In this document: positions 1,539 through 11,900 of the stretch, piece after piece
How positions within the stretch are numbered: the first letter of the stretch is position 1
Layout of the letters: every line of letters starts with the position of its first letter
Source of the DNA: a virus
Strand: one strand, 5' to 3'
Length of the DNA stretch: 11,900 bases
UHGV virus genome: UHGV-0199485
The notes under the pieces: generated by a model
Database searches by the model: none
Told to the model about the DNA's origin: nothing
The model's input: only the letters and a program-made list of their open reading frames with translations
Made by a program: the position numbers and the translations under genes

Positions 1539-2312
1539 TCAGTAGCGCTTGTTAGGATTAACAGACAGCCTCTTCAAAACATTACCTGCACCAGCATTAT
1601 TAAGCACTTTCGAAGCTTGCCCATTAGCGGCATCTGAGAAGGTGCTTTTTCCATTCTCAACTCTGACACTTTTACTACAATTGATACGGGCTTGAAGTTG
1701 CTCATTAGAAAGTTCACTCGCAGAGCGATTATATAGCTCCTGACACATCAACATACCATTACCTAAACTTGTCGTAGTGTTCCCAGTGTTCTTTTTACTG
1801 GTAGCACCACCATCATTCGTGGTAGCGGTCTTGCCAGTAGCAGATGAAATATCAGTTTGCCCTACAATGGCTTTGAAGTTAATTTCCTGAAAAGTTAACT
1901 GGATTCTCAGACCATTTGAAATACCAACATCTTTAGAGGCTTTAAAGCTCGTGATAATGGAATCATCAATTTTAATTCCGTCTTTACAGATGACTGAAAT
2001 AATCTGCTTCTGGTCACGCCAGCTTTCAAGAGTGTCGATGAAGTTTTCTACTAATTGCCCCTGACGAGTTAATAATAAGCTACCTTCATAGCCAACTACA
2101 ACGACACCACTAATAGTGATTGTTCTGGGTGCTCTTTGCACATTATCTGTGACGGTTTGCCCTGATTGCATGTTCTGTGTAGTAACCTGCATAGGGCTGT
2201 CAAATTCCATGTTTTCAGTAGCTGATAAGGTTAAGAAGGCATCTACATTGTCTCTTAAGTGGAAATAGATGCCGTCTTTGCCAGTGTAACGAAGCTGATT
2301 AGTGTAAATCAT
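1539..2312 (-). CDS. Putative phage tail protein directly downstream of the tape-measure gene (distal-tail-protein position)
   Basis: ORF track gives 264 aa from an in-frame TTG at 2333. The first ATG (2312-2310) is preceded by AAGGAG at 6-nt spacing, so a 257-aa product from 2312 is preferred. Beta-rich N-terminal half, then a Thr/Asn/Gly-rich linker. The functional call rests on gene order after the tape-measure gene, not on a recognised motif. Confidence 0.5.
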
Positions 2313-2388
2313 TAAATTCTCCTTTGATTTCAAAGACTTAGTGCATTTTAATCATTTTTAACCAAGCCTTTGATATTTAAGTGTTTTA

Positions 2389-2458
2389 TCTGTTAAGCGT
2401 GAGCTACGTGAAAAATAATTTTTGGTGGGTATATCTGTTCAGGAGATTTCACGTAGCA
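2389..2458. repeat. Copy A of a 70-bp conserved dyad element (candidate activator-dependent promoter or recombination-type site)
   Basis: tctgttaagcgtgag-CTACGTGAAA-33 bp-TTTCACGTAG-ca. 68/70 identical to copy B (4534-4603). The 10-bp inverted-repeat arms are at 2404-2413 and 2447-2456. It lies between the tape-measure stop (2470) and the start of the next leftward gene (2312). Confidence 0.8.
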
Positions 2459-2469
2459 TTCGACTATTA

Positions 2470-4518
2470 TCAATCATCTTCTGGGAATGATGAACTTAAT
2501 AGCGTAGCTTCTGCGTATTGGTCGTAGATATTACTGCTAAAGGTCATAAAGCTGGTTTCATCTGGTTTAATGGCAACTTCACCACCAAGTGAAACTTTCA
2601 CAGGCTCCTGAATACGTTTGCTCAAAGCACTAATTTCATCTCTCAGGCTTTGGATATCCGTATTCGTTAATGCCGCATCTTGTCTCATGGTGATTAATTC
2701 TGGATGCTGGAAGTTAGCAAGATTCATAGCTGCACTATTAAACCAACCTTTCACATCGTCCATAGTAAATACTGGCTTAAGTCCAGATTCTTTAGCTAAC
2801 TCTGGTAATTTAGCTTGTGCTTCCATTCGTTCAGGTGTAGAGGCTAATCTTTCATAACCTGCATAGAGAGCGCTACCAGCTAATAGCATATTCCCAAGAT
2901 TCAGTCTTGATGGTTTCCCATTCTTTCTATTCACGTTATCCGCTGTAGTATCAGCAACCTGACCTAATCTTGTGATAGCAGTCATAAGCCCGTAAATACT
3001 TCTGGTTACACCAACAACTTTATTTACAGCAATAACACCAGCCAAGACTTTTAAACTATTAATCAAGCCAGAACCTAAAGCATCAACAACTTTCTTTTGT
3101 TCATCGGTTAAACCACGGTAAGCTAATGTCACCTCATCGAAGAACGCTCTTACCCTGTAACTGATATCAGTCAGGCTATCCACACCACTTGACATATCAG
3201 TCATCAAGCTACCAAGAGATTCACCAAGACTTTTACCGCTTCCACCTAAACTGTTTAAAAGCGTTGTTAAGCTTCGTGTGAAATCTTGCAGACCATTTTC
3301 AGAACCTCTGAAAATATCCGTTAATGAATTGTTCCAAGTATTCTTTAAGTTCCCTAACATTGTCTGCGTAGAGTCCTGAATAGCTTTCCAGCCACCTCTT
3401 GAATTAATCTGTGAACCAAGTTCTTTAGCAAACTTAGGGAGTGCATCAGAGGCTTTAACATCACCATTTTTCATCTTATCGAAAAGCTGTTTTTCAGTCA
3501 GACCTAAAGCCTTTGCAAATGCCTGAGTAGCACCCGGTAAAGCTTCAGATAGTTGCCCCTTAAGCTCTTCAGCCATCACCTGACCCTTAGAAGCCATCTG
3601 CGATACTGCGGTTAATGCTCTTTGAATCTGCTCATCTGAACGACCCATTAAACGAGCATATCCAGTTAAGTTTTTAAATAACTCTTCTGCCCCTTCAAGA
3701 CCCATCGTGTTCTTTGCAGATGCACCAAATGAAGCAAATTGCGCCTGTGTTTCGGTTGTGTCCATACCAGTAATTTGAGTTAAATCTTGAATGAACTTTT
3801 TGACCTGTGTACTTTGGTCACCGAATACGAAATCAATACTTCTTTCCGATGATGCACGTTGAAGGCCAACTTCCATAATCTTCTGATAAGCGGATAGTAC
3901 AGCCTGAAAGCTGATAAATGCACCTGCTGTTTTAACTGCTGCTGAACTCAAACTATCAAGACTATTAGCTGCTTTGTCACCGTTAATGCTGGTGGATGTA
4001 TGACCTCTGGCTTTAGCAATTGCTTCTCGTACACTTGAATTTAGTTTAGCAAGGGCTTCATTGAATTTTGAATTATCCATTGACCCAGCTTTAGCAGATA
4101 GCCCGTAAAACTGAGATTTGATGTATTTCTGCAAAATAGGGTCAAAGCCTTTTAACTTGCTCATGTTAGCCTGATAAGCTGCTCTTACTGCTCTATCACC
4201 TGTAACCCTTCTTGGCCTCGATTGTCTTGGCGGATTAATAACGTCATTAACCTGACTTGTGAAACGGAAAGCTTTAGTATTTTTTGCTCTAGCTTCCAGA
4301 CGGTCAAAAGTCTTATTAATTTTTCCTTCCATTGACTTCAAAGAAGCCGTTAAATTGCTGTCAAGTTTCTTGGTATCGACCTTAAACGCCCTATTCAAAT
4401 TACGTTCAATTCTTTGTGCTGACTGCAAAGCTGCCTTTTCAACTCTTTGCAAGCCCTTAACAACGTTCTCGCTGAAGCCTAGCTCAACGATAAAACTATC
4501 AACTGTGAATTTGCTCAT
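2470..4518 (-). CDS. Phage tail tape measure protein
   Basis: 682-aa ORF. The central segment ...SDEQIQRALTAVSQMASKGQVMAEELKGQLSEALPGATQAFAKALGLTEKQLFDKMKNGDV... fits the conserved tape-measure domain pattern. Helical N-terminal region and Gly/Ser-rich stretches are also typical. GAGGTGA lies about 10 nt upstream of the ATG. Confidence 0.75.
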   Translation of the reverse strand: MSKFTVDSFIVELGFSENVVKGLQRVEKAALQSAQRIERNLNRAFKVDTKKLDSNLTASLKSMEGKINKTFDRLEARAKNTKAFRFTSQVNDVINPPRQSRPRRVTGDRAVRAAYQANMSKLKGFDPILQKYIKSQFYGLSAKAGSMDNSKFNEALAKLNSSVREAIAKARGHTSTSINGDKAANSLDSLSSAAVKTAGAFISFQAVLSAYQKIMEVGLQRASSERSIDFVFGDQSTQVKKFIQDLTQITGMDTTETQAQFASFGASAKNTMGLEGAEELFKNLTGYARLMGRSDEQIQRALTAVSQMASKGQVMAEELKGQLSEALPGATQAFAKALGLTEKQLFDKMKNGDVKASDALPKFAKELGSQINSRGGWKAIQDSTQTMLGNLKNTWNNSLTDIFRGSENGLQDFTRSLTTLLNSLGGSGKSLGESLGSLMTDMSSGVDSLTDISYRVRAFFDEVTLAYRGLTDEQKKVVDALGSGLINSLKVLAGVIAVNKVVGVTRSIYGLMTAITRLGQVADTTADNVNRKNGKPSRLNLGNMLLAGSALYAGYERLASTPERMEAQAKLPELAKESGLKPVFTMDDVKGWFNSAAMNLANFQHPELITMRQDAALTNTDIQSLRDEISALSKRIQEPVKVSLGGEVAIKPDETSFMTFSSNIYDQYAEATLLSSSFPEDD

Positions 4519-4533
4519 TGTTCATATTTCACC

Positions 4534-4603
4534 TCTGTTAAGCGTGAGCTACGTAAAAAATAATTTTTGGTGGGTATATCTGTTCAGAAGATTTCACGTA
4601 GCA
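4534..4603. repeat. Copy B of the 70-bp conserved dyad element
   Basis: Same sequence as copy A with two substitutions (left arm CTACGTAAAA; core CAGAAGA vs CAGGAGA). It ends 15 bp upstream of the tape-measure ATG and directly follows a terminator-like hairpin. Confidence 0.8.
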
Positions 4604-5644: not shown

Positions 5645-5676
5645 TATTATTTTTCCTCTTCTAAGATAATTTATGT

Positions 5677-5762
5677 TTCAGTTTTTAAAAAGCACACCTG
5701 ACAGCCTACGAACTTAGAAGAGACTTAAAAGCGTTTGCCAAGTGTGCTTTTTAAAAACTGAA
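5677..5762. promoter_or_regulatory. Perfect 21-bp inverted repeat separated by 44 bp (hairpin or operator candidate)
   Basis: TTCAGTTTTTAAAAAGCACAC (5677-5697) and its exact reverse complement GTGTGCTTTTTAAAAACTGAA (5742-5762). It lies about 30 nt upstream of the 234-aa gene start codon, inside the predicted leader. Confidence 0.5.
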
Positions 5763-6010
5763 TAGCCCTAGATAATTTCTTATAAAGGGCCATTCATAAG
5801 GTGAAGAAATTAAAAGAACATCTAAAGGATTCAAATGAATGAACAAAGATTTTTGATATGGCCTATTTAGTGTGGGCTAAATAAGCCATGACGAAAAGCA
5901 TTGCACCTTTCAGAATAACTATCCCTAGATGTAGATGGAATTGTTGAAAGAAATAAGAGAGAATTGCTCTCCCTATAGACTTCGGATAGAAGACTATCCT
6001 CATATATACA

Positions 6011-6039
6011 ATTATGTCATGCTCAAGGTTATTTGTCAA
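6011..6039 (-). promoter_or_regulatory. Candidate sigma70-type promoter reading leftward toward the 234-aa gene
   Basis: Minus strand TTGACA (6039-6034), 17-bp spacer, CATAAT (6016-6011). Confidence 0.35.
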
Positions 6040-6140
6040 CAGCTTTTTAACAGATTGGTAACATCAATTCTTATTTACTGTGTTACCTGCCAAGCAACCA
6101 ACAAATAAACCCAAAACTGTCCATAATACAATTAACGTCA

Positions 6141-6651: not shown

Positions 6652-7077
6652 TTATTTTGAATTGTCTTTATTAATCAATGATTTAACGTAGAAATACTGC
6701 CTCCGTGAAATACCATATTTTTCTGTGATGTATCGCTGAGATTGACCAGCATTTATGGCCTGAGTGATATCATCACGGTTATAGCGGTTACCACGGGATT
6801 TATATTTGTCACCATCCACATCTTCTGATGTATTGAAGTCTTCAATCAGCTTAATTGCATCGTGAAGGTCATCTTCTGAGGCATAATCGAAGGTATGGAT
6901 AATCTCAAAATCACCAGTATCTGCTGGTGCATTCTTCCATCTGGAGAAGCGGGATTTTAATTGCTGGTGTGTGAAAGGTTCAGCATTACGAGTTAAATCT
7001 TTCCATGTTCCGCTATTCTCACGGACAAGGTGGCCTCTATGGCGATAAAACGCATGATAATCAAATGTGCATAGCAT
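6652..7077 (-). CDS. Putative transcriptional regulator with C-terminal helix-turn-helix (Mor/C-like or resolvase-HTH-like)
   Basis: C-terminal segment RDDITQAINAGQSQRYITEKYGISRRQYFYV fits a DNA-binding HTH. The start codon overlaps the stop of the upstream gene (TAATG, 7075-7079), implying translational coupling. Confidence 0.55.
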   Translation of the reverse strand: MLCTFDYHAFYRHRGHLVRENSGTWKDLTRNAEPFTHQQLKSRFSRWKNAPADTGDFEIIHTFDYASEDDLHDAIKLIEDFNTSEDVDGDKYKSRGNRYNRDDITQAINAGQSQRYITEKYGISRRQYFYVKSLINKDNSK

Positions 7078-7367
7078 TAAACCCCCAGCCTATCCGCTAA
7101 TTGATGGACCTTTGCGCTTAACACCTGAATCATTGAGCAACCTGCTACTGCGGACTGTGCTTTGAGTAGTTCCAGTTGGTCCGTTGTGATTCTGATGGCC
7201 TTAGAACCCTCTGCAACACCCTTAACATTATCAAAAGGGGTAAGGGTTACCGGCTCTTTTAGAAGCTCTCCAACAAGCGCCGTATGCTTCATATCAGGGT
7301 ATTTGGCTTTGATTGCTGCCAGTCGTTCAAATGCCTCTGGCAAAAGGCGCGTAACTGTGTGAGTCAT
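7077..7367 (-). CDS. Ribbon-helix-helix-type DNA-binding protein (96 aa)
   Basis: AAGGAG lies 8 nt upstream of the ATG. C-terminal half KAIRITTDQLELLKAQSAVAGCSMIQVLSAKVHQLAD fits the beta-strand / helix / G-x-S turn / helix pattern of RHH repressors; the N-terminal half is RHH-like but less canonical. First gene downstream of the leftward promoter. Confidence 0.5.
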   Translation of the reverse strand: MTHTVTRLLPEAFERLAAIKAKYPDMKHTALVGELLKEPVTLTPFDNVKGVAEGSKAIRITTDQLELLKAQSAVAGCSMIQVLSAKVHQLADRLGV

Positions 7368-7453: not shown

Positions 7454-7503
7454 GGTTATAGGGGCTGATACAGGTGCTGTTTCCTTTCACAAAAGGAAAA
7501 TTA

Positions 7504-7680
7504 ATGCATGATTTTTTCACAGCAATTATTGAATCTCATCGTTTTAGCTCGTTGGGCTTTGCGGTATTTATTGTGCTATTGGTGTTTTGCGTTATGAATC
7601 GAGTCATTACAAAAAAGACAAAGCTTACAATTCGACTTAAACTTCTTCGTGTTGAGATAGAGATTTCAGTAAATAAATAG
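7504..7680 (+). CDS. Small predicted membrane protein (58 aa)
   Basis: ATG at 7504 is preceded by AAGGA at 6-nt spacing; the ORF track starts at an in-frame GTG at 7474. One hydrophobic segment (LGFAVFIVLLVFCVM) is followed by a basic tail. It is the only gene downstream of the rightward promoter. Confidence 0.4.
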   Translation: MHDFFTAIIESHRFSSLGFAVFIVLLVFCVMNRVITKKTKLTIRLKLLRVEIEISVNK

Positions 7681-7986: not shown

Positions 7987-8897
7987 TGGATACCTCCACC
8001 TGCATAGTACATTTTAGGCTTAACCCTTTGCTTCTTATTTTCACTAACTACTTTCTTCTTTGGTGTGAAAGAAAAGTCATCATCGTCACCATCATCAAAG
8101 TCATCGAGGTCATTAACCTTGTTCTTTAGCTTCGCCATTTCAATGCGTGATTTAATCTCTGCTTTGCGTTGTGCTTTTTTAATAGCCTCTTCACGCTCTG
8201 ACTCTTCATCAAGGTAATCATCGAAGGGGTCCATCTCATCATCAGTGGCGGGGCACTGTGTGTTTTTATGGTCACTATCAACATTCACATCAGAGATTTT
8301 ATCCTCCTCTAAGTCAGATGTTTTAGAAGCCTCTTTAGTAGCTTCACTATCAAGGTCAGATTCATTCATAGAGAGAAAATCATTTAATTCATCCAAAGAA
8401 AGAAAGTCATCTTCTTTATTGTTATTAATAAGTTCTTTCTTGTTATTACTGTTATTATACGTGTCAAAGATTTTGACTGACTGAGTAAAAAATTTTGACT
8501 CAGTGGGTAAAGAATTTTGACTCAGTGGGTCATCTTTCTTGACTGACTGAGTAACTTTAGACTCCAGCTTTGCCTTTCTGGCTTCCTTAGCTGTAAGCTC
8601 TGTTAAAACTTCCGGTACTTCATCAAGTGAATAAACTTTAATAACACACTGATTGCTTGCAACGTTAGTTTTCTTGATTAAACCATGTGCCTCAAGTCGT
8701 TTCATACATGCAATCACGGATGTTCTTGTGATTCCAGCATACTGACCAAGATGAGCATATGAAGGGGTATAATATTGCCCCTTATCGTGATAAAACTTCT
8801 GTTCATTCAACATGACAGTGTAAATAATACGGTCGGCAGCTTTAACGCCATTAGTCATCTGATAAATACGGTCATCAAACATGTGGAATTTTTCCAT
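7983..8897 (-). CDS. Replication initiator protein (winged-helix, RepA_N-like N-terminal domain) with acidic C-terminal tail
   Basis: Preferred start is ATG 8897-8895 (MEKFHMFDD...), preceded by AAGGAAAA at 7-nt spacing; the ORF-track start at 8954 has no RBS. N-terminal ...DRIIYTVMLNEQKFYHDKGQYYTPSYAHLGQYAGITRTSVIACMKRLEAHGLIKK... resembles the DNA-binding domain of RepA_N-type initiators. Iterons and an AT-rich tract lie inside the coding sequence. The C-terminus is a poly-Asp/Glu tail (DDFDDGDDDDF). Confidence 0.6.
   Translation of the reverse strand: MEKFHMFDDRIYQMTNGVKAADRIIYTVMLNEQKFYHDKGQYYTPSYAHLGQYAGITRTSVIACMKRLEAHGLIKKTNVASNQCVIKVYSLDEVPEVLTELTAKEARKAKLESKVTQSVKKDDPLSQNSLPTESKFFTQSVKIFDTYNNSNNKKELINNNKEDDFLSLDELNDFLSMNESDLDSEATKEASKTSDLEEDKISDVNVDSDHKNTQCPATDDEMDPFDDYLDEESEREEAIKKAQRKAEIKSRIEMAKLKNKVNDLDDFDDGDDDDFSFTPKKKVVSENKKQRVKPKMYYAGGGIQ
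8471..8554. repeat. Four iterons at exact 22-bp spacing (candidate origin of replication inside the rep gene)
   Basis: TTTTGACTGACTGAGTAA (8471), TTTTGACTCAGTGGGTAA (8493), TTTTGACTCAGTGGGTCA (8515), TCTTGACTGACTGAGTAA (8537). An AT-rich tract (about 8395-8465) flanks them on the low-coordinate side. On the coding strand they encode a low-complexity linker. Confidence 0.55.
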
Positions 8898-9159
8898 TAT
8901 ATTTTCCTTTTTAAAAATAAAACAAAGAAAGGGCTGACCACGTATAGTGACCAACCCCAGAGGGAGTGAATTAATTAGAAGATGGACTGATAAAGGAACT
9001 CAGAAGCCTGAGCGATTACGCGAGTATTAACAGCAAAAGGAAAAGCCTTGATTGAATAAGAGGCCGTGAAAATCTGTCAATACCCTGACGCCTCCCAACG
9101 TTGTAACCTCTTAATGTTCTGAGTTCTTTTATCAGCCCATATAGAAACTATAACAGATG

Positions 9160-9214
9160 TGATTATAAATTGCAACAATTATTTCACAGAATAATTACTG
9201 TTTGATTATAAATT
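9160..9214. repeat. Two exact 12-bp direct repeats TGATTATAAATT in the non-coding control region
   Basis: Copies at 9160-9171 and 9203-9214; on the minus strand each contains TATAAT. Function unknown (operator or -10-like boxes facing the rep gene). Confidence 0.4.
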
Positions 9215-9763
9215 AAGCAATCAAGCTAAAGGGTATTGACAAAGGGCTTGACAAGATTTTACCCTTTTAAAAGATACTTAAAAGATTCCGTTAAACAGGG
9301 TTTTCTTTCTGGTTTCTTCTCTCTCTTAAAAGCCTTTTAAGAATCCTATATAGAAGCAGTAAGTCTCAAAAACTCTGTGGGATAATTTCTAAAACACATC
9401 TCTCAGACTTCACTAGACGCATTCTAAGCCCCTAAATCGGGTAACTCTGGCAATCACCTTAAGCACTCTGAAAATAGCTTCAAAACTCGCTACAGAGCTT
9501 CCTGTGAACTGGTCTATGAATAGCCTAAACTGGTTGATAGGTTTGATTAAAATCTGTACAGATAATATCCAGCCTCTAATTTTTTTATAAAATCGTATTA
9601 GTCCCTCTTCATTTCTCTTCCACCGAATTTTTCGAAAATATCACAAGGCAGTGTATAGCTGCTAAGTACCCGCCACACCAGCTATGTGACCCCCTTTGCA
9701 GAATTTTAAAATATCTATTGACTTTCTATGTGAACTGTTATAAAGACCGCTCCATCTCTTAGG

Positions 9764-9856
9764 CGTACCGATATAGCATACTAAAAAGGTATAGCTAACC
9801 CCCTGTAAAAACCATACCGATTAGCCTTGTAAAACACTTTATCGGTACGTTATACT
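9764..9856 (+). promoter_or_regulatory. Candidate recombinase promoter overlapped by symmetric TACCGAT motifs (possible res-like or autoregulatory site)
   Basis: TTGTAA (9827-9832), 18 bp, TATACT (9851-9856). Inverted repeat CGTACCGAT (9764-9772) / ATCGGTACG (9841-9849), plus a third TACCGAT at 9815-9821. Confidence 0.35.
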
Positions 9857-9891
9857 TAACTCATCAAATGAGTAAGGCAAATGAGTATATT

Positions 9892-10434
9892 ATGGCTAAC
9901 ATCGGTTATGTTCGAGTTTCAACAATCCAGCAGATTACAGACCGTCAACTTGAAGGGGTCGTACTGGATAAGGTATTTACTGATAAAGCATCTGGGAAGA
10001 ATACAGACCGTCCACAACTAAAGGCTATGCTCGATTATGTTCGTGAAGGTGACACTATCCATGTACACGACCTGTCACGTTTAGGGCGTTCTACCGTGGA
10101 TGTATTAACGCTGGTGGATAAACTTTCACAGAGAGGTATCAAGGTTCACTTTCACAAAGAAGGTCTGATAACTGGTGACGATAACCCCACGTCTAAGATG
10201 ATTCTCACAATCTTTTCAGCAGTGGCTGAAGCTGAACGTAAAATGATGCTTGAGCGTCAACGAGAAGGCTATGAAGCTGCTAAAGCTGCTGGTCGTGTAG
10301 TTGGAAGGGGTAACGGTAAAGCGATTGACAGAGAAGGTATTAAAGCTGCTCTTGCTGCTGGTAGTTCAATCGCTAAAGTAGCCGCTCAATTCAACGTTGC
10401 CAAGTCAACTGTACAGCGTATTAAAGCTGAATAA
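9892..10434 (+). CDS. Small serine recombinase (resolvase / DNA invertase family)
   Basis: N-terminus MANIGYVRVSTIQQ with the catalytic serine, a resolvase catalytic core (..DLSRLGRS..), a Gly-rich linker and a C-terminal HTH (SIAKVAAQFNVAKSTVQRIKAE). The ORF track starts 8 codons upstream at 9868; 9892 is preferred from the family N-terminal pattern and promoter position. Neither start has a strong RBS. Confidence 0.85.
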   Translation: MANIGYVRVSTIQQITDRQLEGVVLDKVFTDKASGKNTDRPQLKAMLDYVREGDTIHVHDLSRLGRSTVDVLTLVDKLSQRGIKVHFHKEGLITGDDNPTSKMILTIFSAVAEAERKMMLERQREGYEAAKAAGRVVGRGNGKAIDREGIKAALAAGSSIAKVAAQFNVAKSTVQRIKAE

Positions 10435-10460
10435 TTTCTCATCACCTATATAGATTCATG

Positions 10461-10484
10461 GCCTCCTTAATTGGGGGCTTTTTT
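10461..10484 (+). terminator. Rho-independent terminator after the small serine recombinase gene
   Basis: GCCTCC (10461-10466), loop TTAATT, GGGGGC (10473-10478) with one G-U pair, followed by T6 (10479-10484). It lies 27 nt after the stop codon. Confidence 0.6.
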
Positions 10485-10490
10485 GTATCC

Positions 10491-10582
10491 TCTAAGCGTG
10501 TACTACGTGATGATTCGGATAAGAATTATCCTCATAAAATCTCCTGAACACTTACCCACCCTCAGAAATAACTTTCACGTAG
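10491..10582. repeat. Copy C of the dyad element, with the core in opposite orientation and 29 bp longer
   Basis: Shares TAAGCGTG-nn-CTACGTGA (10493-10510) and TTTCACGTAG (10573-10582) with copies A/B. Its 62-bp core contains AAATCTCCTGAACAC-TTACCCACC, the reverse complement of the A/B core GGTGGGTATATCTGTTCAGGAGATTT. Confidence 0.7.
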
Positions 10583-10655
10583 GAAATCGTTAAGGGTTTT
10601 ATAGTTACACTATGTGACCAACTGCATGAATAGCGTTATATATCCCTGTATATAG

Positions 10656-10671
10656 CACTATATATATAGTG
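10656..10671. promoter_or_regulatory. Perfect 16-bp palindrome CACTATATATATAGTG (operator-like)
   Basis: Exact palindrome in the intergenic region between element copy C and the 3' end of the 277-aa gene. A TATAGCA motif also recurs upstream of the recombinase (about 9771-9795). Confidence 0.3.
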
Positions 10672-10896
10672 TCTGGAGAGGAACGACTAACACGATACAG
10701 TTTACCCTGAAAAGAGACTTCACAGATTCTTTATATATTTCAATGAGTTAGGATAAAAAGGGACTATACCGATACTGCATAGAATCTGTGTAAAACTGCT
10801 TAGATATTTGAAGAAATACCGTTAAATTGCATAGTCATAGGGGTTGGAACAAGCCCAACTACACCTGTTTATGTCCTGTTATTTACAGGCATAGCA

Positions 10897-11730
10897 TTAT
10901 TGGTTAATTAATTCATTCGACTCTATATTATTACCTTTTTCTTTTTCCTTTTTAATTTTAGACTCAACCATATCTAACATTTTTAATGCCTGTGTTGAAG
11001 TTAGCTCTTTCTTTTGTCGTAGCGCGTTACGTATGGTAGAAGCTTCAATATCAGAAACTGTTAAAAGTTCTTCTACCCTACTCTTCAATTGCTGTAATGA
11101 ACGGCTATTATCAACTTTAAAGAAATCATTCATTACATCAAGTGAGGCAACAATCAAATCCTGTAGTCTCTCTTTTTCTTTTGCTATATTTTCAATAGTT
11201 TGTTTTTCAATAGATACTGACTCTTTTAAGTTGCTAATCTCTTTAAGCATCTGTTTCCTTGCTGTCTCAAGGTCTTCTGTGACCAACTCTTCACGCTTAC
11301 CACGCTCTACTTCCGCTTTAATATCAGCATCAATTTTAGCATTTTCTTTCTCTTCTTCTCTGGCAACCCGAACCTTTAACCCCGTTAACCTGATTGAATT
11401 AAGGTATTCCTTTTCTTTTGAAAGATAAATATTTTCACTGTGTTTATCTGTAGCCCATTTTTGAGCAAGAGAAAGTAACCATTGAGCATAAGGAGTAATA
11501 ACAGCTAGCACACTTCCAAAAAAGACAGGTGCTAACAGATAATGTACATAAAAATATTCCTGAGACAGAATATAATCTATTCGAAACTTAACAGGAGCAT
11601 CACTCATAAAGAGCATTGCCAAGTTAGGCCAATTGAACCATACCCATGCAAGAATGATATATCCCCATAATGGGCTTTTAATCCTATCGTTTATTGCTTG
11701 CATAGTAGAATCTAACCATCCATCACTCAT
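10897..11730 (-). CDS. Membrane-anchored coiled-coil protein (277 aa), function unknown
   Basis: GAGGG lies 6 nt upstream of the ATG. Two N-terminal hydrophobic helices (WGYIILAWVWFNWPNLAMLF; VHYLLAPVFFGSVLAVITPYAQWLL) are followed by about 180 aa of Glu/Lys-rich heptad-like sequence. Confidence 0.6.
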   Translation of the reverse strand: MSDGWLDSTMQAINDRIKSPLWGYIILAWVWFNWPNLAMLFMSDAPVKFRIDYILSQEYFYVHYLLAPVFFGSVLAVITPYAQWLLSLAQKWATDKHSENIYLSKEKEYLNSIRLTGLKVRVAREEEKENAKIDADIKAEVERGKREELVTEDLETARKQMLKEISNLKESVSIEKQTIENIAKEKERLQDLIVASLDVMNDFFKVDNSRSLQQLKSRVEELLTVSDIEASTIRNALRQKKELTSTQALKMLDMVESKIKKEKEKGNNIESNELINQ

Positions 11731-11806
11731 AGCTAACCCTCGGAAATCTTATCTTTCTGTCTATCATAACCACAAGCATCACCTTTAGGAACCATCTGAA
11801 ACGGGA

Positions 11807-11854
11807 GGTGTATTTAGACCTTGCTAATCTTCATCAGACACGTTTAAATACACC
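11807..11854. other. 13-bp imperfect inverted repeat with 22-bp spacer upstream of the 277-aa gene
   Basis: GGTGTATTTAGAC (11807-11819) and GTTTAAATACACC (11842-11854), one mismatch. A possible -10 TATGAT (complement of 11763-11768) lies between it and the gene start. Confidence 0.3.
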
Positions 11855-11900
11855 ACCTAAAGCGATACAATCGCGCTATTAGTTTTTATGGTGGTAAAGA

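Follow-up and report, generated by a model that had tools for sequence, protein, structure and literature searches.

A probable regulatory hub and cargo hotspot in an Escherichia coli integrative island that is most likely a satellite of Felix O1-like phages

What does nearly one kilobase of DNA without a gene do inside a compact mobile element? The question is raised by positions 8898-9891 of the virus genome UHGV-0199485, a stretch of 11,900 nucleotides that we analysed as a whole and refer to as the window. This gap lies between rep, which encodes a replication initiation protein (Rep) and is read leftward on the minus strand, and a gene for a small serine recombinase that is read rightward. 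A previous reading, made from the sequence alone, had regarded it as a non-coding control region and named as possible contents promoters with operators, a small RNA, a site for packaging, or one for attachment or transfer. Our analysis suggests that the region is a regulatory hub combined with a cargo hotspot, and that it belongs to an integrative Escherichia coli island, most likely one that exploits virulent Felix O1-like phages as their satellite or parasite. We put the probability of this reading at about 0.6.

The limits of the gap follow from the two flanking start codons. Rep starts at an ATG at 8897-8895 on the minus strand, a start that PGAP places identically in the 98%-identical relative L001, and the recombinase starts at the ATG at 9892, with its catalytic serine as residue 10; the gap therefore spans 8898-9891, 994 bp between divergent genes, and contains no credible open reading frame (ORF), just as the sequence-only reading had claimed. 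The sole ORF of at least 60 amino acids (aa) touching it is a 64-aa frame with a TTG start at 8775-8969, antisense to rep. The longest ORFs within the gap encode 23-34 aa, start with TTG or GTG throughout and are broken by frameshifting indels in close relatives, while the longest ATG ORF has 24 aa and no ATG ORF of the gap carries a Shine-Dalgarno sequence. Nor has PGAP annotated anything over the homologous stretch of RefSeq genomes. The hidden small protein gene that could have explained the space did not appear when ORFs, indels and Shine-Dalgarno sequences were checked, and the 994 bp are genuinely non-coding.

Comparison with relatives, comprising 34 loci found through Rep and three RefSeq copies (L001, L002 and L041), resolves the gap into a mosaic of exchangeable modules with sharp junctions. 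Next to rep lies a leader on the minus strand (8898 to about 9084) that is specific to the rep type, of which there are three. It is followed by module A (9085-9204), whose core at 9134-9202 is nearly invariant in all 29 aligned relatives and stays so even at a Rep identity of 45-54%. Then come slot 1 (9205-9547), filled here by a 343-nt non-coding block, and module B (9548-9745), which is found in nearly all relatives at 76-97% identity. Slot 2, from 9746, is either empty or occupied by differing small serine recombinases on either strand, and the sequence upstream is particular to each of them. Slot 1 holds, in about two thirds of the relatives, a 220-aa Dam gene on the minus strand and then a shorter version of the phage-like block described below. 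Because most relatives carry dam between the rep promoter and the phage-type module, the length of the gap would partly reflect a cargo slot that is free of genes here. The sequence-only reading had argued that length alone sets the region apart, which holds for this copy but not for most relatives, where the interval is taken up by the methyltransferase gene. The dam-bearing relatives include L002, L006, L007 and L009; the product is a DNA N-6-adenine methyltransferase and has no homolog in the 87-kb phage ekra (L040). From this map the region reads as a composite of regulatory hub and cargo hotspot.

The promoter scan calls a rep promoter-like site on the minus strand at 9147-9175, composed of a -35 element TTGCAA (9175-9170), a 17-nt spacer and a TG-extended -10 element TATAGT (9152-9147). 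Its spacing lies within the 16-18 nt of sigma-70 promoters, and the scan calls it again, at the same place, in the type-2 relative L029. Directly upstream of the -35 element is an operator-like palindrome, ACAG-N8-CTGT (9186-9201), which is invariant in all relatives and has the reverse order of a LexA box. The predicted transcription start at about 9140 is the first base of a long inverted repeat (8982-9019/9103-9140). From there to the rep ATG, the rep operon would carry a 5' leader RNA of about 247 nt (8895-9141, minus strand), which folds at -78.9 kcal/mol (z = -5.8) as minus-strand RNA and at -63.2 kcal/mol (z = -4.2) as plus-strand RNA. Most of the leader is a rod-like domain (8981-9141, minus strand) of 160 nt with 53 bp in five helices, in which the 5' end of the RNA pairs with a segment about 145 nt downstream. 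A 23-nt linker separates the rod from an intrinsic-terminator-like hairpin recognised by the terminator scan (8913-8958, minus strand; stem 8958-8930), with 12 bp and the U-rich tail UUCUUUGUUU. With four G.U pairs among its 12, the hairpin forms well only as minus-strand RNA. The element ends about 20 nt before the rep start codon, and the rep ribosome-binding site (RBS) lies about 20 nt beyond the hairpin, so that a terminator- or attenuator-like structure stands at 8958-8930 directly upstream of the RBS on the transcribed strand. On the plus strand, the scan of 8898-9140 found no promoter for a counter-transcript.

In the other rep types the leaders have different sequences but the same fold architecture. 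A covariance model built on four type-1 rods, R1, recovers the type-2 and type-3 rods at full length with 70-82 bits (E about 1e-16), and it finds no match in phage ekra. In the R1 alignment 97.2% of the cells are paired, and 16 of the 53 pairs have changed on both sides compared with 0-2 in slid controls, an excess of compensatory pairs as expected of a conserved structured RNA. This alignment was used instead of MAFFT/RNAalifold, which misaligned the inner helices and gave only the closing stem on mixed leader types. One-sided changes within the leader families go from A-U to G.U, and such changes fit only a minus-strand RNA. The scan for known RNA families that the sequence-only reading had proposed was carried out with Rfam 15 cmscan over the whole window at E <= 1; it returned three weak and unrelated matches, all outside the gap, and nothing in 8898-9891. 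The leader is thus not assignable to any Rfam 15 family at this threshold, P4/P1-type C4 antisense RNAs included. A small RNA had been suggested for the region. The RNA element that we find is no known free-standing small RNA (sRNA) but the structured 5' leader of rep, which includes a terminator hairpin. If the region works as proposed below, the 160-nt rod and the terminator are a candidate for a new cis-regulatory RNA, and we suggest that Rep expression may be gated in the leader through attenuation or antitermination, or through RNA stability. Also noticed, by eye, was that the apical loop of helix 3, GGGAGG (9098-9085), is complementary to the C-rich linker CACUCCCUCU (8973-8964) in the minus-strand RNA. 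This complementarity co-varies across leader types (GGGAG/CUCCC versus GGGGA/UCCCC) and may represent a pseudoknot or a contact resembling an anti-Shine-Dalgarno pairing.

To the right of module A lies a phage-type promoter/leader module on the plus strand (9205-9345). The dyad with tandem TTGACA boxes reported by the sequence-only reading is present as described, with AAAGGGTA (9228-9235) and TACCCTTT (9260-9267) around TTGACA at 9236-9241 and 9249-9254. The repetition of TTAAAAG is equally real: there are 16 copies in the window against 4.8 +/- 2.3 expected, with 16 or more in 0 of 200 shuffles, and five of them cluster within the 77 nt of 9264-9340. The same module contains the palindrome TCTTAAAAGCCTTTTAAGA (9324-9342). 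In Felixounavirus and Mooglevirus genomes, positions 9228-9358 of the window find their match in a divergent intergenic region that precedes one small gene. This gene, ekra_108 in phage ekra and gp016 in RPN213, has DUF5681 as its only Pfam domain. In ekra it is the first of a long block, which passes the tRNA cluster and reaches the genes for terminase, head and tail. When the module alone was used as query, 233 of 50,697 phage records matched, all of them 84-92-kb Ounavirinae and no other phages, and 190 of the 233 cover at least 80% of the module at about 70% identity. The best blastn E-value was 1e-6 in both database searches, at about 70% identity over 130 nt.

Exact shared words point in the same direction. 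The 19-nt palindrome TCTTAAAAGCCTTTTAAGA is common to the window and phage ekra and unique in each, the 20-mer TTGACAAAGGGCTTGACAAG is common to the module and L003, and a 25-mer that differs from the words of the window is common to Dam-type islands and phages. In Dam-type islands the module lies to the right of dam in the same orientation. Its presence there too, with a different phage 25-mer, suggests that the module is a core part of the island family, and it is probably refreshed by recombination with phages. The features picked out by the sequence-only reading typify these phages: ekra itself has three tandem-TTGACA sites, its tRNA promoter bears the same dyad, AAAGGGTATTGACA...TACCCTTT, followed by TAATAT, and CTTAAAAG occurs in it 35 times against 5.4 expected, mostly between genes. 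The depositors of MZ726791 predicted a promoter at the spot homologous to the module, in an annotation that needs a 15-nt spacer. When the window and 30 relatives were searched by tblastn with ekra_108 and ekra_107, nothing of the phage gene turned up, and the literature on Felix O1/Ounavirinae transcription yielded nothing relevant. These similarities are consistent with a helper-type promoter/leader that would place rightward island transcription under the signals of the phage copy, although the module may instead be a protein-binding or packaging site. As separate observations, the 5' leader of the DUF5681 gene in phage ekra (35880-36030) contains the hairpin AGATATC...GATATCT followed by a T-rich run, and the copy of that hairpin in a Dam-type island (L029:4853-4874) was scored as terminator-like. 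The motif CTTGACAAG occurs six times in phage ekra, mostly at promoter-like positions, which hints at promoter-proximal attenuation in the phage.

The 12-bp direct repeats TGATTATAAATT that had been pointed out earlier are exact, at 9160-9171 and 9203-9214. However, an exact 12-mer repeat is present in 7% of Markov-1 random sequences with the composition of the gap, and we have dropped the pair as a stand-alone signal at this chance level. The first copy overlaps the spacer and the -35 element of the rep promoter. The second spans the module junction at 9204 and is missing in Dam-type relatives.

Several lines of evidence bear on the element that carries the gap. The window is the circular, excised form of an E. 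coli integrative island of about 12 kb, since its end joined to its start (11701-11900 followed by 1-200) aligns unbroken to the right end of the integrated copy L002 (15971-16101, attR) and then to its left end (3880-4150, attL). From the same junction and an inverted repeat, attP is located as an imperfect palindrome at about 11804-11857, with arms GGTGTATTTA...TAAATACACC and the crossover at about 11827-11831. An attachment site within the gap, as the sequence-only reading had considered, is therefore not borne out, for the junction lies about 1.9 kb away. Nothing points to a transfer site, another of its suggestions, in the gap either. Parts of the island occur in 569 of 5426 complete E. 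coli genomes, always in the chromosome and never on a plasmid; a search of the plasmid collection in near and distant modes gave no match to the window, and a plasmid replicon was rejected as a candidate for lack of any such sign. Integration sites lie inside yecE (L002), in the wrbA/ymdF interval (L001) and in the tonB/yciI interval (L041). The island encodes a large serine recombinase as integrase (1-1524), a Dit-like 'baseplate' protein, a tape measure protein and small hypothetical proteins, then Rep, the gap, the small serine recombinase and a 277-aa protein, and it has no capsid or terminase genes. Rep is lambda-O-like and matches the PHROG family 'replication initiation protein' at E 1e-10; the small recombinase has Resolvase and HTH_7 domains and falls into a PHROG family named 'DNA invertase'.

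The tail genes tie this island to the same phages as the module. The tail genes, which lie in 1539-4518, are 90-96% identical to Felixounavirus, the Dit-like gene (1754-2283) shows 94-96% identity to 212 records of Felix O1-type phages, and the 5' end of the tape measure gene shows 86% identity to such phages. Such helper-like tail genes on a small island may interfere with tail assembly or hijack it. In addition, the right end of phage ekra has a terminator that agrees at 23 of 23 positions with the core of the one after the small recombinase (10461-10483). Taken as a whole, this content makes a satellite or parasite of virulent Felix O1-like phages the most likely identity of the island. No satellite of Felix O1-type phages was described in the literature that a full-text search returned for these phages, for Ounavirinae, for islands of E. 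coli and for DUF5681.

The origin of replication does not lie in the gap. Its probable site is within rep, where 8463-8550 holds a tandem array of four 22-bp iterons that contain internal dyads and are succeeded by AT-rich repeats. Both other rep types have their own 23-bp iterons, in three and four copies, at the same relative position in rep (L029:6350-6418 and L017:5290-5380). A repeat search found no iteron-like tandem array within the gap.

The centre of the gap consists of two unlike segments. The first is a filler of 200 nt (9345-9547) that is specific to the dam-less variant, is rare and has never been annotated. Full-length copies occur in 18 of the 5426 E. coli genomes and partial or weak ones in a further 12; although the backgrounds are mosaic, conservation of the filler is at least 92%. 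Strains that carry this variant include E. coli Z1323CEC0012 (NZ_CP148435), BA92 (NZ_CP176406) and 2012C-4227. Filler derived from dam or from a phage gene was rejected, as it has no similarity to either. The second is module B, which contains the palindrome ATCTGTACAGAT (9552-9563), a T-run (9578-9588) that is preceded by a hairpin in Dam-type relatives, a near-invariant 43-nt block (9658-9700) and a weak, rightward promoter-like site, TTGACT-N15-TATAAA (9718-9744). Module B shows no coding signal and its folding z-score is about 0 on both strands. A structured non-coding RNA in 9272-9760 was also rejected on a z-score near 0 for both strands.

On the recombinase side (9746-9891), the last 146 bp are swapped together with the recombinase allele. 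They carry recombinase-specific repeats at 9764-9849, namely CGTACCGATA (9764-9773), ATACCGATT (9814-9822) and the inverted TATCGGTACG (9840-9849), for which the motif search gives the consensus (G/A)TACCGAT(A/T) in three copies within 86 bp. A promoter-like site called by the scan on the plus strand, TTGTAA-18-TATACT (9827-9856), overlaps the right-hand repeat. The MRTFLYARVS-type allele carries TGTCTATA/TATAGACA repeats instead. In this arrangement the repeats resemble a res site or an autoregulatory site. The promoters and operators anticipated for the region can accordingly be named at the level of sequence and comparison: the invariant sigma-70-type rep promoter with its palindrome, the phage-type module with tandem TTGACA boxes and the recombinase-proximal promoter within allele-specific inverted repeats.

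How might these parts work together? We propose that the near-invariant sigma-70-type promoter at 9175-9147 fires leftward and that its transcript opens with the leader of about 245 nt. The rod and the terminator hairpin before the rep RBS would gate Rep synthesis after initiation, by attenuation or antitermination or through RNA stability, and gating of Rep synthesis would in turn gate replication from the iterons inside rep. Back to back with this promoter, the rightward module copied from the Ounavirinae region could expose island transcription to the factors that act on the phage copy, and the island would thereby be linked to infection. The right-hand 146 bp would supply the recombinase with its own promoter and cognate res-like repeats, and the middle (9345-9745) is made of the rare filler and the conserved module. 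The most specific form of this proposal, which we put forward tentatively as possible, is that an undescribed family of E. coli satellites of virulent Felix O1-like phages uses the gap as its helper-sensing switch, in which a promoter/leader block taken from the phage and a new structured RNA attenuator before rep couple replication to infection; the same region would double as a slot for the exchange of cargo such as dam. Promoter activity, attenuation, helper sensing and satellite status are all what we infer from sequence comparison.

A number of findings weigh against the regulatory and satellite interpretation. Both TTGACA boxes of the phage-type module are perfect, yet no -10 hexamer stands at 16-18 nt from either and the promoter scan makes no call there. 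The gene that follows the module also varies, being the plus-strand recombinase here, a minus-strand one in L041 and none in L029, and this inconsistency leaves the output of the module undefined. For the leader, the compensatory changes mostly trace to one deep split between two leader families, in an alignment that was fitted to the model, and the rod is absent entirely from L036 and L037, in which dam is also truncated. In the type-2 and type-3 leaders, the hairpin at the same place (11 bp with two G.U pairs, of different sequence) has only a short UUUUC tail and is not called a terminator. The central 9272-9760 gives no folding signal on either strand. The link to a helper is drawn from sequence identity alone, and pattern scans of IMG/VR did not find the island as a contig of its own: the module B pattern occurs in one contig that merely starts inside an island, the core of the rep promoter occurs in none, and these scans gave no virome evidence of island packaging.

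Other explanations of the gap were weighed against the same evidence. One of them holds that only the rep promoter with its leader and the 146 bp before the recombinase are functional, and that 9205-9745 is debris of cargo exchange whose copies are similar through recent spread and not through selection. The sharp junctions and swapped content would suit it, as would the restriction of the full-length filler to 18 of 5426 genomes, the flat folding of the centre, a 23-nt deletion in L012 and a truncation in L038. We regard it as unlikely, because the phage-type module and module B occur in one orientation in essentially all of the 30 or more variants, across three rep types and several sites; because each of the two island types keeps different exact 19-25-mers in common with the phages; and because conservation of the filler stays at 92% or more even though its surroundings are mosaic. 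The conservation of the same segments could alternatively reflect packaging. PICIs and P4 carry copies of pac or cos, and 9205-9345 or 9658-9700 might likewise be a start site for the terminase of the helper. A module that is core to every island variant, homologous only to Ounavirinae DNA and without a fixed downstream gene would fit such a role; so would the clustering of CTTAAAAG motifs also in the non-coding left end of the phage genome, and the conservation of module B without a coding or folding signal. But the phage gene at the homologous region is the DUF5681 gene, about 6 kb from the large terminase gene with the tRNA cluster in between. A small-terminase function of this gene would favour packaging; none of the sources calls it a terminase, PHROG and NCBIfam assign it no function, no PDB sequence matches, and the AlphaFold model of the protein is too poor to serve as a test (pLDDT 66), with Foldseek E-values all above 1. 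Module B and phage ekra, moreover, share no word of 13 nt or longer beyond low-complexity A/T runs. A packaging signal therefore seems to us rather improbable.

The remaining alternatives fare worse. A hidden small protein or a free-standing sRNA accounting for the space is improbable to a greater degree. An sRNA of about 125 nt is plausible in Dam-type relatives, given that the 137 nt from the module to the hairpin and T-run fold there at z = -4.6 to -4.9, and the gap does have several 23-34-aa ORFs with TTG or GTG starts. The window variant, however, has lost both hairpins of this putative sRNA, the first one and that of the terminator, and its equivalent 321 nt fold at z = -0.14. Nor does the gap have an Rfam match at E <= 1, an ATG ORF longer than 24 aa or an ATG ORF with a Shine-Dalgarno sequence, and frameshifting indels occur in close relatives. 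The origin of the V. cholerae PLE lies in a non-coding region, and a long AT-rich non-coding stretch beside rep with many repeats and dyads could suggest the same here; we rejected this as very improbable, since the iterons lie inside rep at 8463-8550 and inside rep in the other types as well, while the gap has no tandem iteron array. Finally, the PHROG name 'DNA invertase' and the promoters in the gap might bring to mind an invertible promoter switch of the hin or fimS type run by the adjacent small serine recombinase. This is scarcely credible and was likewise rejected: no strong inverted repeats bracket a promoter segment, pairs that extend into the recombinase gene attain at best 71% over 21-24 nt, no complete predicted promoter lies between the only exact inverted repeats (9764-9773/9840-9849, 66 nt apart), and the modules keep one orientation relative to rep in all of the 30 or more relatives. 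The regulatory hub and cargo hotspot of a probable satellite thus remains our preferred reading of the gap.

Some other parts of the island deserve mention. The Dit-like gene and the tape measure gene each have a 70-nt element upstream (2389-2458 and 4534-4603), in copies that are 97% identical; it is itself built as a 10-bp inverted repeat, CTACGTGAAA...TTTCACGTAG, has a partial inverted copy downstream of the small recombinase (10537-10582) and does not match anything in phage ekra. The island has another long non-coding stretch (5645-6140, 496 bp), with a hairpin at 5677-5762 whose 27-nt arms are 93% complementary; in the loop of this hairpin stands ACTTAGAAGAGACTTAAAAG, a tandem motif almost identical to that of the phage promoter region. 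The Rfam match to MIR9563 at 5666-5776 was set aside as spurious, being just a long hairpin. A phage-like promoter, TTAAAAAGCTGTTGACA-17-CATAAT, is seen on the minus strand at 6039. A third non-coding stretch, 'module C' (10435-10896, 462 bp), is conserved across relatives and begins with a terminator at 10460-10485. The only plus-strand ORF in the leftward gene block, at 7474-7680, encodes a 68-aa peptide with a hydrophobic helix that is annotated as a 61-aa hypothetical protein in L001 and may be a small membrane protein or a toxin-like protein. Two further small products, of 96 aa (7077-7367) and 141 aa (6652-7077), are candidates for DNA-binding proteins of the island.

The anatomy of the gap and its homology to phage DNA are solid on these comparisons. 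Satellites of virulent phages are known from few systems, such as PLE with ICP1 and the PICMIs in vibrios, and Felix O1-type phages are widely used for typing and biocontrol of Salmonella and E. coli. If our interpretation is correct, the gap would offer a concrete handle on how a satellite detects its helper, through a copied phage promoter module and an RNA gate on replication, and the island could account for the failure of Felix O1-based applications or for resistance to them. Otherwise, the region would still illustrate cleanly how the regulatory DNA of a mobile element can be modular and recombine.

Similar arrangements have been recognized in other mobile elements. In the lambda phage the origin lies within gene O, and the iterons within the lambda-O-like rep of the island follow the same arrangement. 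In the satellite P4, the replication gene alpha is controlled by a leader transcript, with the CI RNA and premature termination upstream of the gene. The island rep likewise appears to be a replication gene gated in a long structured leader, with long-range complementarity and terminators rather than by a classical repressor alone. Unlike in P4, however, the island leader has no Rfam match at E <= 1, and its Rep is lambda-O-like with an internal origin whereas that of P4 is a primase-helicase. The P4 promoters Psid and PLL resemble the late promoters of P2 and respond to Ogr/Delta; a satellite that carries promoter sequences of the helper type shares the transcriptional signals of its helper, and the same may be true of the island. 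Its similarity differs from the P4/P2 case in being direct homology to one Ounavirinae intergenic region, with sigma-70-like tandem -35 boxes and no fixed downstream gene. Plasmids such as pT181, pIP501 and pAMbeta1 control rep through transcription attenuation mediated by an antisense RNA, and like the island they have a terminator hairpin immediately 5' of the rep RBS in a structured leader. In contrast to these plasmids, the scan finds no promoter for a counter-transcript in the island leader. In Tn3/gamma-delta-type resolvases, which have the res-tnpR arrangement, repeated half-sites and a dedicated promoter lie directly upstream of the small serine recombinase, and in the island this segment changes with the allele. 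It differs in that only three copies of the half-site are recognised in 86 bp and there is no partner transposase.

In Vibrio cholerae, the virulent myovirus ICP1 has PLE as its satellite (PMC9638900). PLE resembles the E. coli element as a small chromosomal island with a large serine recombinase as integrase, its own replication initiator, a tie to a virulent myovirus and sizeable non-coding control DNA. The two are nevertheless unrelated in sequence, and the E. coli island differs by having its origin inside rep and by carrying phage-derived tail genes for the tape measure and Dit-like proteins. With regard to cargo, P4-like satellites and P2-like phages have variable hotspots (PMC9122126). 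The island shares with them conserved flanks around swapped content, which here may be dam, nothing, or small recombinases in either orientation. Unlike those hotspots, its flanks are non-coding modules instead of genes, and slot 1 of the window is free of any gene.

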